In this document: positions 18,250-21,082 of the stretch, piece after piece
Layout: each line of letters begins with the position of its first letter
Position numbering within the stretch: the first letter of the stretch is position 1
Assembly: GCA_024405635.1 (NCBI GenBank)
Contig: JAKSOL010000007.1
Coordinates: 63,981-127,980 of the forward strand
Origin: Salinivirgaceae bacterium
GTDB lineage: Bacteria; Bacteroidota; Bacteroidia; Bacteroidales; SZUA-534
DNA: 64,000 nucleotides
Direction of reading: 5' to 3'
Notes under the pieces: generated by a model
What the model was told of the DNA's origin: nothing
Database searches by the model: none
What the model saw: the letters and a program-made list of their open reading frames with translations, nothing else
Program-made: the position numbers and the translations under genes

Positions 18250-18305
18250 TAATACAGAACAAGTACAACGAACTTGTTAACCGCATGCAGGCGGTGGTCT
18301 TTTAG
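18250..18305 (+). pseudogene. 3' tip of a hicB-like gene in spacer 3
   Basis: Near-identical reverse complement of 20687-20742, encoding IQNKYNELVNRMQAVVF*. Confidence 0.75.
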
Positions 18306-18382
18306 GACTTAATCAACATTAAGGCGGTGCTGCATTCACCGCTTTTTTTTTGCTTTTAAAAAAAATTTTGTAATTTTGTAGT

Positions 18383-18471
18383 GCTTTATAAGCATCCCTG
18401 GACTCGCTCCGAGATTGGGTTTGTGTCGAAAGGCTCATACCACCAAAGCCTAACAGTGTTAGGCTTTTTTT
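18383..18471 (+). ncRNA. Candidate structured sRNA convergent on a toxin gene (copy in spacer 3)
   Basis: TAATTTTG -7 box at 18371-18378, GAAA-capped stem 18418-18441, terminator 18445-18471; covaries with the copy in spacer 6. Confidence 0.5.
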
Positions 18472-18701
18472 GTTAATGACGAGTTTGTTTTGATGACATT
18501 ATAGCCGTCGTCAAAGTAATAATATACCTTTATTTTATCTATATGCCACAAATTGTACAATGCGTTGATAGCCTTATCTGTATCAATACCTCTTTCTAAG
18601 CATTGCAACACGATTTCAGCCTTTTGATGATTTATGGCATAACGTGCTTTTTTTTCAATATTACCAGTTCCTTTGGTTTGTTTCAAATCTGCTGGAATGC
18701 C
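18459..18701 (-). pseudogene. C-terminal fragment of a CdiA_C-like (PD-(D/E)xK, tRNase-type) toxin domain in spacer 3
   Basis: GIPADLKQTKGTGNIEKKARYAINHQKAEIV...; homologous to the ORF ending at 20508; cut by repeat 4. Confidence 0.6.
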
Positions 18702-18736
18702 GTTTTACATAATGCTCAAACTCAGACAAGTAAAAC

Positions 18737-19148
18737 TTACAATACCCTTTACAGTGATGTTTTTTATGGTTGCACCGCTCGAATACCCGAATAATCCGAT
18801 ACTGCGTGTTTCAGCCGAACTGTCAGCAACATTCATATTCGAAATGGTGTGGTTGTTGCCGTCAAAAACACCTTTAAACGGATTCCTTGCCTCGCCAATG
18901 CTAAACCACGGTTGATTGTTCAGGTCGATGTCCGCAATAAGTTTATAGTGCAAAGTATCAAATCCCTGTGTTCCGGCACTAACAACATACGACATAAACG
19001 CCAGTTCGTTAGCGGTTCCAATAATATATGGCGACTCTTTGCTGCCATCACCTTCTGTGAATTCTTCCATGGCGCCTTCCCATGCGTCTGCCGCATGAGT
19101 GTTAATCACCGCCAACACCATGACGATGCTAATGAATGTAATCTTTCT
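18737..19148 (-). pseudogene. N-terminal fragment of a secreted GLUG-motif surface protein; fills all of spacer 4
   Basis: Signal peptide RKITFISIVMVLAVINTHA (apparent start Met missing), GDGSKESPYIIGTANEL, FKGVFDGNNHTISN, GLFG; the frame runs into repeat 4. Confidence 0.75.
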
Positions 19149-19168
19149 GTTTTACATAATGCTCAAAC

Positions 19169-19378
19169 TCAGACAAGTAAAACTTTTAGATGTTTCAAAT
19201 CGGAGGGCGAGAATTTGCCCACCTCCGCCTTGTAAGTAACACGTGTTATTTTGCCGTTCTTTACGTAAAAAGAAACTTTTACTACATTGCCGTTCTTTAC
19301 AGCGTGAACGTGAATGGGTTTGTGTTCGCCAGAATAGAACAAAATTTTTATTCCAAGATATTCGTATATTACAGGCAT
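19169..19378 (-). pseudogene. DUF4160 (DhiT/HicA-like toxin), 3'-truncated by repeat 5
   Basis: MPVIYEYLGIKILFYSGEHKPIHVH signature; the last residues VLLV* come from the repeat. Confidence 0.8.
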
Positions 19379-19396
19379 AAATTAAAACTCCTTATA

Positions 19397-19717
19397 ATGA
19401 TTATTTGTAATTCCCACGAAAGGCTTACTACTACTAAACGTTGCACAACAATGTGCATTAACAAGATTATTGCCGATTGTAAAGCATTTAAGATTGGCAA
19501 AACTGGCGACCCTCAAAGCAGGGCGGCCAATTATGGCGATTTTGACAAAATGTATCTTTTGGTTCAAAGCAAAAATTCGCTTCTGATTGATAGGCTTGAA
19601 GGCTACTATACCCAAAAGTATTACGGCCATAAAAAAAATATGAATATAAACAGAGGTTCTGCGGCTGTTATGGCTTCTTCTCATAGGACTTACTATTTAT
19701 ATATTGTTGTCAAATAG
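19397..19717 (+). CDS. Small protein with GIY-YIG-like motifs (106 aa) in spacer 5
   Basis: FKIGKTGDPQSR...Y, LE...., C-terminal YYLYIVVK. Confidence 0.5.
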   Translation: MIICNSHERLTTTKRCTTMCINKIIADCKAFKIGKTGDPQSRAANYGDFDKMYLLVQSKNSLLIDRLEGYYTQKYYGHKKNMNINRGSAAVMASSHRTYYLYIVVK

Positions 19718-19966
19718 GCCATTATACATACTTAACGGATTTATGTCTGCTCCGTTGTCCCAAGTAACAATGCCGTCAACTACGCCAACTTTGGCAAATA
19801 ATTCTTTGTCGATTAAGGCCTTAAAAACTGGGAAATAGCCTTTTTGTATGTTGTTTTTTAGATAGCATATTTTTTCTGTGCCATCATAAAATTGCACTTG
19901 TAAGGCATATTCGTCTATGTTATATACTTTAACCGACTTCACATCAAAAAAGGCTTTTTCCTTCAT
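19697..19966 (-). CDS. DUF2442 (DhiA-like antitoxin); complete, in spacer 5
   Basis: Y.L.V.F.DG.E, VFKAL.D.ELF, V.W.NGADI.P..MY pattern. Confidence 0.8.
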   Translation of the reverse strand: MKEKAFFDVKSVKVYNIDEYALQVQFYDGTEKICYLKNNIQKGYFPVFKALIDKELFAKVGVVDGIVTWDNGADINPLSMYNGLFDNNI

Positions 19967-20008
19967 TGTTTTGGTTTTACATAATGCTCAAACTCAGACA
20001 AGTAAAAC

Positions 20009-20508
20009 ACGATATTAGCAATATTAGTGAGTTGGCTGAAAATCGTGCAGAGTTCATGGCGTATGCGACAAATCCTGATTATACATCTACGTTCGACACT
20101 GGCAGCGGTGGTTTCTTGGCTAAACATAACTCACGAATACCTAACGACTCAACGTCAAAGAACGATATAGAGAAGTATGAGAAAGAAATAAGAATGTGCG
20201 ATGTATTCGTAAAGGCTGGGCACAAGATTGTTTACAAAGAAGATGTCCAAGGGGAGTATGATGTGTTATTTGACGGAATTCCAGCAGATTTGAAACAAAC
20301 CAAAGGAACTGGTAATATCGAGAAATACGCAAGGTACGCCGTGAAGAGTCAGAAAGCAAAAATGGTGCTTTTTTGTTTGGAAAAGGACATAAATAGAAAC
20401 AAAGCGGAGGAGGCACTAAGAGCGTTGTATATAGTAGATAAAATCAAAGTGTTGTATTATTATGAGGACAATACGAATGTTGTTTTGTCTAATAAATCAC
20501 TTCTATAA
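20009..20508 (+). pseudogene. 5'-truncated toxin-like ORF with a CdiA_C-like nuclease domain (probable phage MuF/polymorphic toxin tip) in spacer 6
   Basis: KE..MC..F...GH, YDVLFDGIPADLK, NI..Y...A...QKA..V; the frame is open back into repeat 6. Confidence 0.6.
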
Positions 20509-20509
20509 A

Positions 20510-20610
20510 ATAGAAAAGCCCAACAATAACATTGTCAGGCTTTTAGTGGTACGAGTCTTTCGACACGTACCCTATCTCGGGGCTAACCCAGGGACTGCCA
20601 TTTAAGACAC
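20510..20610 (-). ncRNA. Candidate structured sRNA convergent on a toxin gene (copy in spacer 6)
   Basis: -7 box TAATTTTG (rc of 20613-20620), GGTACG-T-GTC-GAAA-GAC-T-CGTACC stem (20548-20571), terminator about 20514-20544. Confidence 0.5.
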
Positions 20611-20686
20611 TACAAAATTACAAAATTTTTTATAAAAGCAAAAGAAAAAGCGGTGAATGCAGCACCGCCTTAATGTTGATTAAGTC

Positions 20687-21082
20687 CTAAAAGACCACCG
20701 CCTGCATGCGGTTTACAAGTTCGTTGTACTTGTTCTGTATTATTGCTTTCTGCTTGTCCGATACTGGTACAAGTTTACGTTTGTATTTGCGCATCATTGC
20801 TGCGTTTAGACCTATTTCCTTGGCGAATGCTGTGGCGTTGATAAATGGAAATTGCTCAAAGAACCCAGATATGTCGTACACGTATTCTACTGCGATATTG
20901 TCACTATACCAATCTGGGTATTTCCCTGTTTGTTCCATGTGGTATTTGGCTTGCTCAACCATAACTTCCTCGAAGCATGTTTTAGCCTCTTGTTCTGTCA
21001 TGCCACTGCCGTACACGCCTTGCGCATCGTTGGTGTAAATAGCAAAACCTCCGTCTGCGCCCCTCTCAATAACTGCTTTCAT
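20687..21082 (-). CDS. HicB-like antitoxin with C-terminal HTH; complete, in spacer 6
   Basis: KAVIERGADGGF...G.G.T..EAK..F; YVYDISGFF..FPFINATAFAKEIGLN...MRKY. Confidence 0.85.
   Translation of the reverse strand: MKAVIERGADGGFAIYTNDAQGVYGSGMTEQEAKTCFEEVMVEQAKYHMEQTGKYPDWYSDNIAVEYVYDISGFFEQFPFINATAFAKEIGLNAAMMRKYKRKLVPVSDKQKAIIQNKYNELVNRMQAVVF

Follow-up and report, generated by a model that had tools for sequence, protein, structure and literature searches.

Type II-C CRISPR systems, in which Cas9, Cas1 and Cas2 are encoded together, store fragments of mobile DNA as spacers of about 30 nucleotides (nt), and several spacers from one phage family often accumulate in such arrays. The locus considered here lies in a window of 64,000 nt, the whole stretch of DNA that was analysed (positions 63,981 to 127,980 of contig JAKSOL010000007.1, assembly GCA_024405635.1, from a Salinivirgaceae bacterium), in which eight direct repeats adjoin a cas1 gene of the type II kind and a small cas2-like gene, and in which spacers 1 to 7 measure, in array order, 1874, 454, 452, 412, 790, 1159 and 2350 nt. 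No description of kilobase-spacer arrays beside lone Cas1-Cas2 genes was found in open-access papers and bioRxiv. The standing doubt about arrays of this kind is whether capture makes them, and two overlapping spacers, 3 and 6, provide an internal test, as they hold the same locus in opposite orientations. It appears probable, at roughly three chances in four, that one region was captured separately for each of these two spacers, the donors being the genomes of two temperate phages (or prophages) that were related to each other but not the same.

Spacer 3 aligns over its entire 452 nt, as the reverse complement, to positions 20275-20742 within spacer 6; of the 468 alignment columns, 73.7% are identical and 16 contain a gap. 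A repeat search links 18250-18703 with 20273-20742 through five collinear inverted matches. The homology that an earlier note on this DNA had read from the letters is thereby borne out over its full length, and the two peptides quoted there are real translations. Perfect 35-nt repeats abut both ends of spacer 3, the homologous stretch is internal to spacer 6, and three repeats and two other spacers separate the two. A BLAST search with spacer 6 of the whole 2.66-Mb genome (99.78% complete) returned only spacer 6 itself and the spacer-3 copy (E 2.3e-86, 76% identity); the match greatly exceeds chance, and the genome holds exactly two copies of the donor locus.

The divergence between the copies is uneven. 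On one side, 20605-20742, which takes in the hicB tail, its terminator and an A/T-rich promoter-like stretch, shows 4 differences in 137, and on the other 20275-20325 shows 3 in 51, while between these flanks the coding part (20326-20508) differs at 79 of 176 positions and the non-coding element (20509-20604) at 21 of 88, besides insertions and deletions (flanks versus centre, Fisher p 5e-17 and 1e-6). The near-identity of the hicB tail and terminator and the divergence of the toxin tip and the intervening RNA-like element, both remarked on earlier, hold on these counts. A local duplication, in which the spacer-6 piece (or one captured donor) was copied inverted within the array and drifted in place while conversion kept its ends alike, would suit several of these features: the copies are only 1.5 kb from each other within a single array, their flanks match at 97-98% of positions, a likeness to be expected of conversion tracts, and no outside donor was found in the searched contigs and phage records. 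The manner in which the centre has diverged speaks otherwise. The 77 shared codons contain no insertion or deletion and are open in both copies, and the proportions of non-synonymous and synonymous differences (pN 0.28, pS 0.72) give a dN/dS ratio of about 0.15. That is not how a 3' gene fragment lacking a promoter would evolve inside an array, and the ratio together with the intact frame therefore places the divergence before capture. The first 17 shared toxin codons carry three synonymous and no non-synonymous changes, so the left flank is conserved at silent sites too, and beyond these codons silent sites are saturated. Moreover, among the 28 sites at which the toxin tips differ, an independent database protein of 405 amino acids (aa), P0015, has the spacer-3 residue at 12 and the spacer-6 residue at 7; spacer-3-specific residues thus recur in an unrelated protein, and spacer 3 is not a decayed copy of spacer 6. 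A duplication would further require conversion in two separate tracts, one running precisely to each end of spacer 3, and it would have to let the coding centre diverge by 45% while six repeats remained identical and spacer 4, which lies between the copies, accumulated no difference in 412 nt. We regard it as very unlikely.

Spacer 4 is instructive in its own right. It occupies 18737-19148 and is identical at 412 of 412 positions to 45931-46342 of contig C14 of the same genome, the identity ending exactly at the repeats. The source is nt 4-415 of a gene for a 757-aa surface protein with a Por_Secre_tail domain (a tail of the type IX secretion system), which stands beside MobC/NikA-like and relaxase genes. 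This match is direct evidence that the slots of the array hold exact excerpts of DNA found elsewhere, and spacer 4 is a self or resident-element spacer, tolerated in an effector-less locus. The six inner and right-hand repeats are identical and the two left-most carry 4 and 2 mismatches; six identical repeats and an undiverged spacer 4 make the array look young. Taken together, the signature of selection, the mosaic flanks, the affinities of P0015 and the youth of the array indicate that the divergence of spacers 3 and 6 predates their capture, and they support the earlier proposal of independent acquisition from two variants of one donor locus. The two spacers differ as natural alleles do, with silent-site saturation, an intact frame and mosaic flanks, and not as decaying duplicates do. 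This allele-like divergence and the perfect excerpt in spacer 4 argue for repeated, orientation-blind sampling of long DNA, and the main value of the pair is as internal evidence that a long-spacer array was built by repeated sampling of mobile DNA.

The locus is like type II-C adaptation modules in several respects. Its Cas1, the sole Cas1 in the genome, belongs to the type II (NMENI) family TIGR03639, and it is accompanied by a small cas2-like gene and a leader-like stretch that sets the array 50 nt from that gene (Table 1). The repeats are all in the same orientation, have the termini GTTTTA...TAAAAC and, at 35 nt, fall within the 23-50 nt of CRISPR repeats; the degenerate copies lie at the end far from the cas genes, and no repeat matches are expected in shuffled sequence. 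Fragments of mobile DNA are stored, and the same invader locus was sampled more than once. There are differences as well. The spacers, at 412-2350 nt, are neither short nor nearly uniform at about 30 nt, their borders cut genes in spacers 3, 4, 6 and 7 of the open reading frame (ORF) map, fragments lie in either orientation, and one spacer comes from the host's own genome. A search of the whole genome with TIGR01865 gave no match to Cas9, and no anti-repeat of a tracrRNA was seen among reverse-strand repeat copies at up to 8 substitutions, a more diverged anti-repeat not having been sought. An array of integron cassettes would have an IntI tyrosine recombinase and whole, promoterless genes between attC sites; here a scan of 26 ORFs over 7762-30964, covering the array with its flanks, gave no match to a recombinase family, and identical 35-mer repeats and genes cut at the borders are also at odds with an integron. 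Housekeeping genes flank the locus, with purU-like and TPR genes to its left and Vut_1, queC and queF to its right.

Table 1. Features of the array and of the two copies of the donor locus; positions are those of the 64,000-nt window.
Feature	Position	Strand	Basis or remark
Repeat array, eight 35-nt direct repeats (GTTTTACATAATGCTCAAACTCAGACAAGTAAAAC)	15817..23587	+	Repeat and pattern searches; repeats start at 15817, 17726, 18215, 18702, 19149, 19974, 21168, 23553
Spacer 3, shorter trailer-side copy of the donor locus, hicB-sense on + strand	18250..18701		Repeat search, pairwise alignment
hicB-like tail, spacer 3: last 17 codons (IQNKYNELVNRMQAVVF) and stop	18250..18305	+	Peptide identical to spacer-6 gene; one synonymous difference
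hicB intrinsic-terminator-like hairpin and T run, spacer 3	18321..18354	+	Hairpin at 18321-18345; same site in spacer 6
Promoter-like stretch, spacer 3: TTTG, 18 nt, TAATTTTG	18349..18378	+
Candidate small RNA, spacer-3 allele: three predicted hairpins, the last a terminator with T run	18383..18475	+	3' end overlaps last codons of convergent MuF-tip ORF
MuF-type C-terminal putative nuclease-toxin domain, spacer-3 allele: last 80 codons and stop, 5' end cut by repeat	18459..18701	-
Spacer 6, longer leader-side copy, inverted relative to spacer 3	20009..21167		Repeat search, alignment, BLAST
C-terminal domain of phage MuF-family protein, predicted CdiA-CT-like PD-(D/E)xK fold, 165 codons, 5'-truncated at repeat	20011..20508	+
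Candidate small RNA, spacer-6 allele	20503..20607	-	Folding z -4.26
Promoter-like stretch, spacer 6	20613..20642	-	Layout as in spacer 3
hicB terminator-like hairpin, spacer 6	20647..20671	-
hicB-like antitoxin gene, complete, 131 aa	20687..21082	-	Relatives named HicB family antitoxin by sources
hicA remnant: last four codons (AGLK) and stop	21152..21166	-	Compared with natural HicA ends in AGLK
Leader-like stretch, 50 nt, between cas2-like gene and first repeat	23588..23637	-	Conserved in relic on contig C8 of same genome
cas2-like gene, 106 aa	23638..23958	-	TIGR01573 weak: E 0.0043, 17.3 bits, below 24.5 cut-off; no Pfam match
cas1, type II kind, 285 aa	23962..24819	-	PF01867 E 9.6e-31; TIGR03639 E 7.9e-85, 284.5 bits vs cut-off 120

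Relatives of the Cas1 are found at E<=1e-20 in 102 of the 301 genomes sampled from the order. The nearest of them, at 55% identity, is in genome G150 (locus at 8560-10978 of contig C25), where the same short cas2-like gene adjoins cas1 (the homolog, of 104 aa, follows it) and where no Cas9 was found in a genome 98% complete. Upstream of that cas1 stand four repeats of 35/36 nt and unrelated sequence, separated by spacers of 408, 231 and 341 nt. Five other loci with Cas1 relatives (G235, G258, G239, G119 and contig C63 of G002) have arrays with periods of 65-77 nt, and Cas9 adjoins a Cas1 in all four of those genomes searched (G235, G239, G258 and G002, G119 not being searched); in G002 the Cas9 is on contig C37 and the inspected array on contig C63. 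Though the count is small, two Cas9-less genomes with long spacers versus four with Cas9 beside Cas1 and short periods, the comparison points to loss of Cas9 as the step that may have freed the length and orientation of the captured fragments. Cas9 is reported to select and size prespacers in type II systems, and a role for its loss agrees with this.

It could also be asked whether this is a capture array at all. The 35-nt repeat might instead be a small mobile or recombination site, spread in a patchwork of prophage remnants, with the two copies an old inverted duplication, as spacers far longer than in any described CRISPR array and solo or decayed repeat copies on contigs C8 and C5 might suggest. 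Against this, the eight co-oriented repeats adjoin a cas1/cas2-like pair with a leader, the degenerate ones lying farthest from it; the copy on C8 has a leader and a cas2 remnant of its own; the excerpt in spacer 4 is exact and comes from inside a gene that survives intact elsewhere in the genome; and in the nearest Cas1 relative the layout recurs with repeats and spacers that are unrelated in sequence. Such an origin is hardly credible.

Separate capture would have proceeded as follows. In the donors, the 3' end of a MuF head-protein gene would have been followed by a non-coding stretch of about 180 nt and by a convergent hicB with hicA upstream of it. Two such phages would have been mosaic relatives, with near-identical flanks around a swapped cassette of about 280 nt that comprises the last ~60 toxin codons and the non-coding element; polymorphic-toxin loci are known for variation of this sort. 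A Cas9-less, type II-derived Cas1 and the cas2-like protein would then have inserted both pieces, in opposite orientations, the orientation presumably being unselected as no Cas9 reads a protospacer-adjacent motif. Spacer 6 retains 498 nt of the toxin domain, the whole of hicB and four codons of hicA; in spacer 3 there remain 240 nt from the tip of the toxin gene and, from hicB, 56 nt. The leader end is probably the newer. The degenerate repeats at the far end suggest this polarity, and if the cas-proximal end is indeed newer, spacer 3 is older than spacers 4-6.

Several points weigh against separate capture, foremost that no public sequence was found to hold either donor. The earlier note had looked to viral or metagenome data for both alleles, and the searches of viral, genome and metagenome contigs found neither. 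A HicB alignment run against these contigs gave no close relative (64-68% at best; the closest HicB relative known, the protein P0002 on a 1.2-kb contig, reaches 84%) and no adjacency of MuF and hicB genes, nor did tblastn and blastn over the fetched loci reveal such adjacency; the toxin domain is absent from all 236 HicB loci and hicB from all 32 toxin loci, so that the adjacency is seen only in these two spacers. Neither a 37-nt exact pattern nor a degenerate pattern of the small-RNA core matched in the viral contigs, where an alignment of the two toxin alleles found 90 stretches, none confirmed as donor. A protein search for longer versions of the toxin fragment found none, and blastn of spacer 6 against 50,697 phage records gave no match. 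Once captured, the inverted copies could have had their flanks evened out by gene conversion, and the lean of P0015 toward the spacer-3 allele is modest. Further, integration by Cas1-Cas2 and polarity from the leader end are what we infer, and the window comes from a metagenome assembly, on which the order of spacers across identical 35-nt repeats rests.

Public runs holding this stretch carry gut or rumen metagenome labels, and some of their contigs resemble donors or variants at first sight. In runs X2, X3 and X10, repeat-less contigs cover exactly 18737-19148 and were considered as a foreign donor of spacer 4; they were rejected, being the host's own C14 locus. Similarly, a joint from 21570 to 22149 in runs X2 and X3 was rejected as an array variant, being the host's C33 locus. 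A joint from 17760 to 22095, with only 29 letters on its shorter side, was not used, and a contig of run X3 with spacer 5 has joints into repeat copies that are not uniquely placeable. A 551-nt contig of run X2 covers 20608-21145 with 5 differences and 6 gaps and continues into 19 nt that are unlike; it may represent a third allele or else a spacer that is bounded differently. The loose ends of run X10 before 18355 and 18476 are too short and A/T-rich to interpret. Stretches of the array that lack cover in runs X2, X3, X5 and X10 were given no weight as absences.

The protein-coding content of the captured locus is best compared with the MuF polymorphic toxins of temperate phages. A profile search with the toxin domain found 202 representatives at E<=0.001 and 98 at 1e-10, many of them forming the end of proteins of about 400-540 aa, and the domain was found in 32 viral loci. 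Ten representatives were scanned: Phage_Mu_F was found in three, two of them above the cut-off of 29.6 bits (P0016 32.8, P0020 58.8, P0015 22.7 bits), and CdiA_C of Pfam in six, all below its cut-off (19.6-25.9 bits vs 26.6). A structure model from a 70-sequence alignment has a predicted local distance difference test (pLDDT) score of 97.4, and a single PDB entry, 4g6v_A, which is a CdiA-CT toxin from Burkholderia pseudomallei, matches it at E<=0.001 (E 7.4e-6, probability 1.00, TM 0.58/0.70, 131 columns). The domain thus fits a putative CdiA-CT-like nuclease toxin of phage MuF head proteins, and 'toxin' is a fair word for it. The label used in the earlier note holds for the domain, on the strength of the fold match, and fails for a partnership with hicB, whose partner is hicA. 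Passages of a survey of MuF proteins name the CdiA-CT domain of B. pseudomallei (cd13442) among the toxin domains they carry and report that 89.4% of MuF toxin genes have a small ORF after them (Jamet et al., 2017; PMC5576092). The present domain likewise stands C-terminal on Phage_Mu_F proteins, has a predicted fold resembling that of CdiA-CT and varies in its C-terminal part between conserved flanks. The differences are that the window holds only the C-terminal domain, the MuF part having been removed by capture (the fragment begins at the repeat, and the N-terminal Phage_Mu_F domain is present in full-length relatives), and that a structured non-coding stretch and a convergent hicB follow instead of a small immunity ORF; on the ORF map, no ORF of any kind is common to both copies between the toxin stop and hicB.

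For the hicB-like protein, the databases hold 12 relatives that are 47-84% identical to it, and NCBI or UniRef labels several of these as HicB family antitoxin; the protein itself matches no Pfam or NCBIfam HicB model. Hits to its relatives comprise 247 of 316 candidate stretches in viral contigs (the HicB-bearing ones mostly of 30-56 kb), 76 loci in genomes and 350 of 570 stretches in metagenomes; judging by these similarities, relatives of the gene are common in Bacteroidales phage-like DNA. In five of six natural loci inspected, an ORF of 60-61 aa lies about 58 nt upstream of hicB on the same strand, and the two such ORFs that were scanned are HicA_toxin (PF07927; 52-54 bits vs a cut-off of 27). 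The locus thus resembles HicAB modules in its 131-aa product with relatives named HicB and in the HicA ORF that precedes these genes in natural loci, and differs in that the antitoxin gene stands without a toxin. Only the AGLK end of hicA is left, the rest having been lost at the border of spacer 6 with no adjacent hicA toxin gene remaining, so the window holds hicB without its own toxin. A strong terminator-like hairpin with a T run (10 pairs, 7 of them G-C) was also seen between the hicA remnant and hicB, at 21124-21148 on the minus strand, and given this hairpin hicB may have been its own transcription unit in the donor.

Between the toxin and hicB genes lies the element that the earlier note had singled out as the selected cargo. 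On that proposal, the locus is present twice because the RNA between the genes benefits the host and was kept on that account, for instance if it neutralises the phage toxin in an allele-specific manner. The candidate RNA is about 90 nt long, within a non-coding stretch of about 180 nt that has two terminators, and the same layout of promoter-like stretch, three hairpins and terminator occurs in both copies. The promoter-like call rests on resemblance to what we take to be the Bacteroides -33/-7 consensus; this A/T-rich stretch has weak matches in 133 of 401 Bacteroidales genomes, which suggests a generic regulatory motif. The folding of the spacer-6 allele stands out from shuffles (z -4.26), while that of the spacer-3 allele does not surpass them (z -1.63). 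Both alleles can form every one of the 25 pairs in the consensus, with two double and four one-sided changes, but the pairs were derived from the very sequences being judged and an equal result came from 119 of 500 shuffles, so the pair count is without power. The candidate RNA and the toxin tip vary together inside the swapped cassette, and behind the toxin gene no immunity ORF is present, in contrast to most of the MuF toxin genes surveyed by Jamet et al. (PMC5576092).

Convergent type I toxin-antitoxin pairs, in which an antisense RNA overlaps the 3' end of the toxin mRNA, as in txpA/RatA of Bacillus subtilis, offer a further comparison. A small convergent transcript is predicted here as well, and its terminator overlaps the end of the toxin ORF. 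Here, in contrast to those pairs, the RNA is a predicted one and the toxin is the last domain of a virion protein of about 400 aa and not a small membrane peptide.

Set against these features, the completeness of the candidate RNA in both copies follows from geometry, since it is central in a 452-nt fragment and anything in mid-fragment would be complete. No Rfam family matches in the window at the gathering score (the best sub-threshold match is rli42, 22.4 bits vs 80), and the structured part has no relatives in the 401 Bacteroidales genomes, viral contigs or phage records; a DNA search of the intergenic stretch in those genomes gave short weak matches, mostly in the A/T-rich part, few at the terminator end and none over the two inner hairpins. 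Moreover, if a 40-kb genome is sampled for fragments as long as spacers 3 and 6 (452 and 1159 nt), the two would overlap by chance in about 4% of cases, by our estimate, so no selection is needed for the double capture. The small RNA as selected cargo is accordingly left unsupported and seems improbable, even if the co-variation of the toxin tip with the structured element makes an RNA partner for the MuF toxin a testable idea.

A capture hot spot, which is compatible with separate capture, would be another way to account for the overlap. The machinery would prefer the region for a free DNA end, a packaging start or a fork stalled at the convergent terminators, with no part left to chance or selection. 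The zone of convergent terminators is indeed central in both fragments, MuF genes belong to a head-morphogenesis block near the packaging genes, and classical CRISPR adaptation is biased toward free ends and stalled forks. On the other hand, there are only two fragments, their ends do not coincide, and the distance to any DNA end is not measurable without the donor genome. We consider such a preference unlikely, though less so than selection for the RNA.

What the array does for its host can be addressed only tentatively. It is possible, with the balance of odds somewhat against it, that the Cas9-less type II Cas1-Cas2 is an active machine that inserts gene-sized phage, mobile-element and host DNA at the leader repeat in either orientation, that spacers 3 and 6 record two infections, and that the array could act without a Cas effector, via antisense or double-stranded RNA or via a stored orphan antitoxin. 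Since spacers 3 and 6 are stored in opposite senses, transcription reading through the array would put both strands of the 137-nt near-identical stretch into one RNA, together with antisense RNA to the phage toxin and hicB genes. If true, the locus would record long DNA naturally and would be a candidate tool for the insertion of long fragments.

Further traces of the locus and its neighbours occur elsewhere in the genome. On contig C8, 646-805 is a relic of a second locus, with one repeat (1 mismatch), 50 nt of leader-like sequence and the final ~22 codons of a gene like cas2. This relic shares 84% identity with 23553-23713 of the window, and GNAT acetyltransferase genes flank it. On contig C5, a decayed repeat with 7 mismatches (66901-66935) lies downstream of an ATPase-like ORF, the product of which resembles the AAA_14/DUF4143 protein encoded in spacer 1 (24% identity, E 2e-10). 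On contig C33, an ORF-poor gap of 1.4 kb joins, at 64217-64408, pieces like spacer 2 (17838-17952, 85%) and spacer 7 (22149-22172 at 100%, 21529-21570 at 93%), and the donors of these two spacers may be one kind of element with a decayed chromosomal trace. Within the array itself, spacer 1 holds at 16020-16141 four copies of a tandem unit of about 33 nt ending in TACCGTCATTTTGA, upstream of the AAA_14/DUF4143 ATPase gene, which may form an operator-like or iteron-like array. Finally, spacer 5 (19169-19966) contains DUF4160 and DUF2442 ORFs on the minus strand and, between them on the plus strand, an 88-aa ORF of unknown family, and may represent another small toxin-antitoxin-like pair stored whole.

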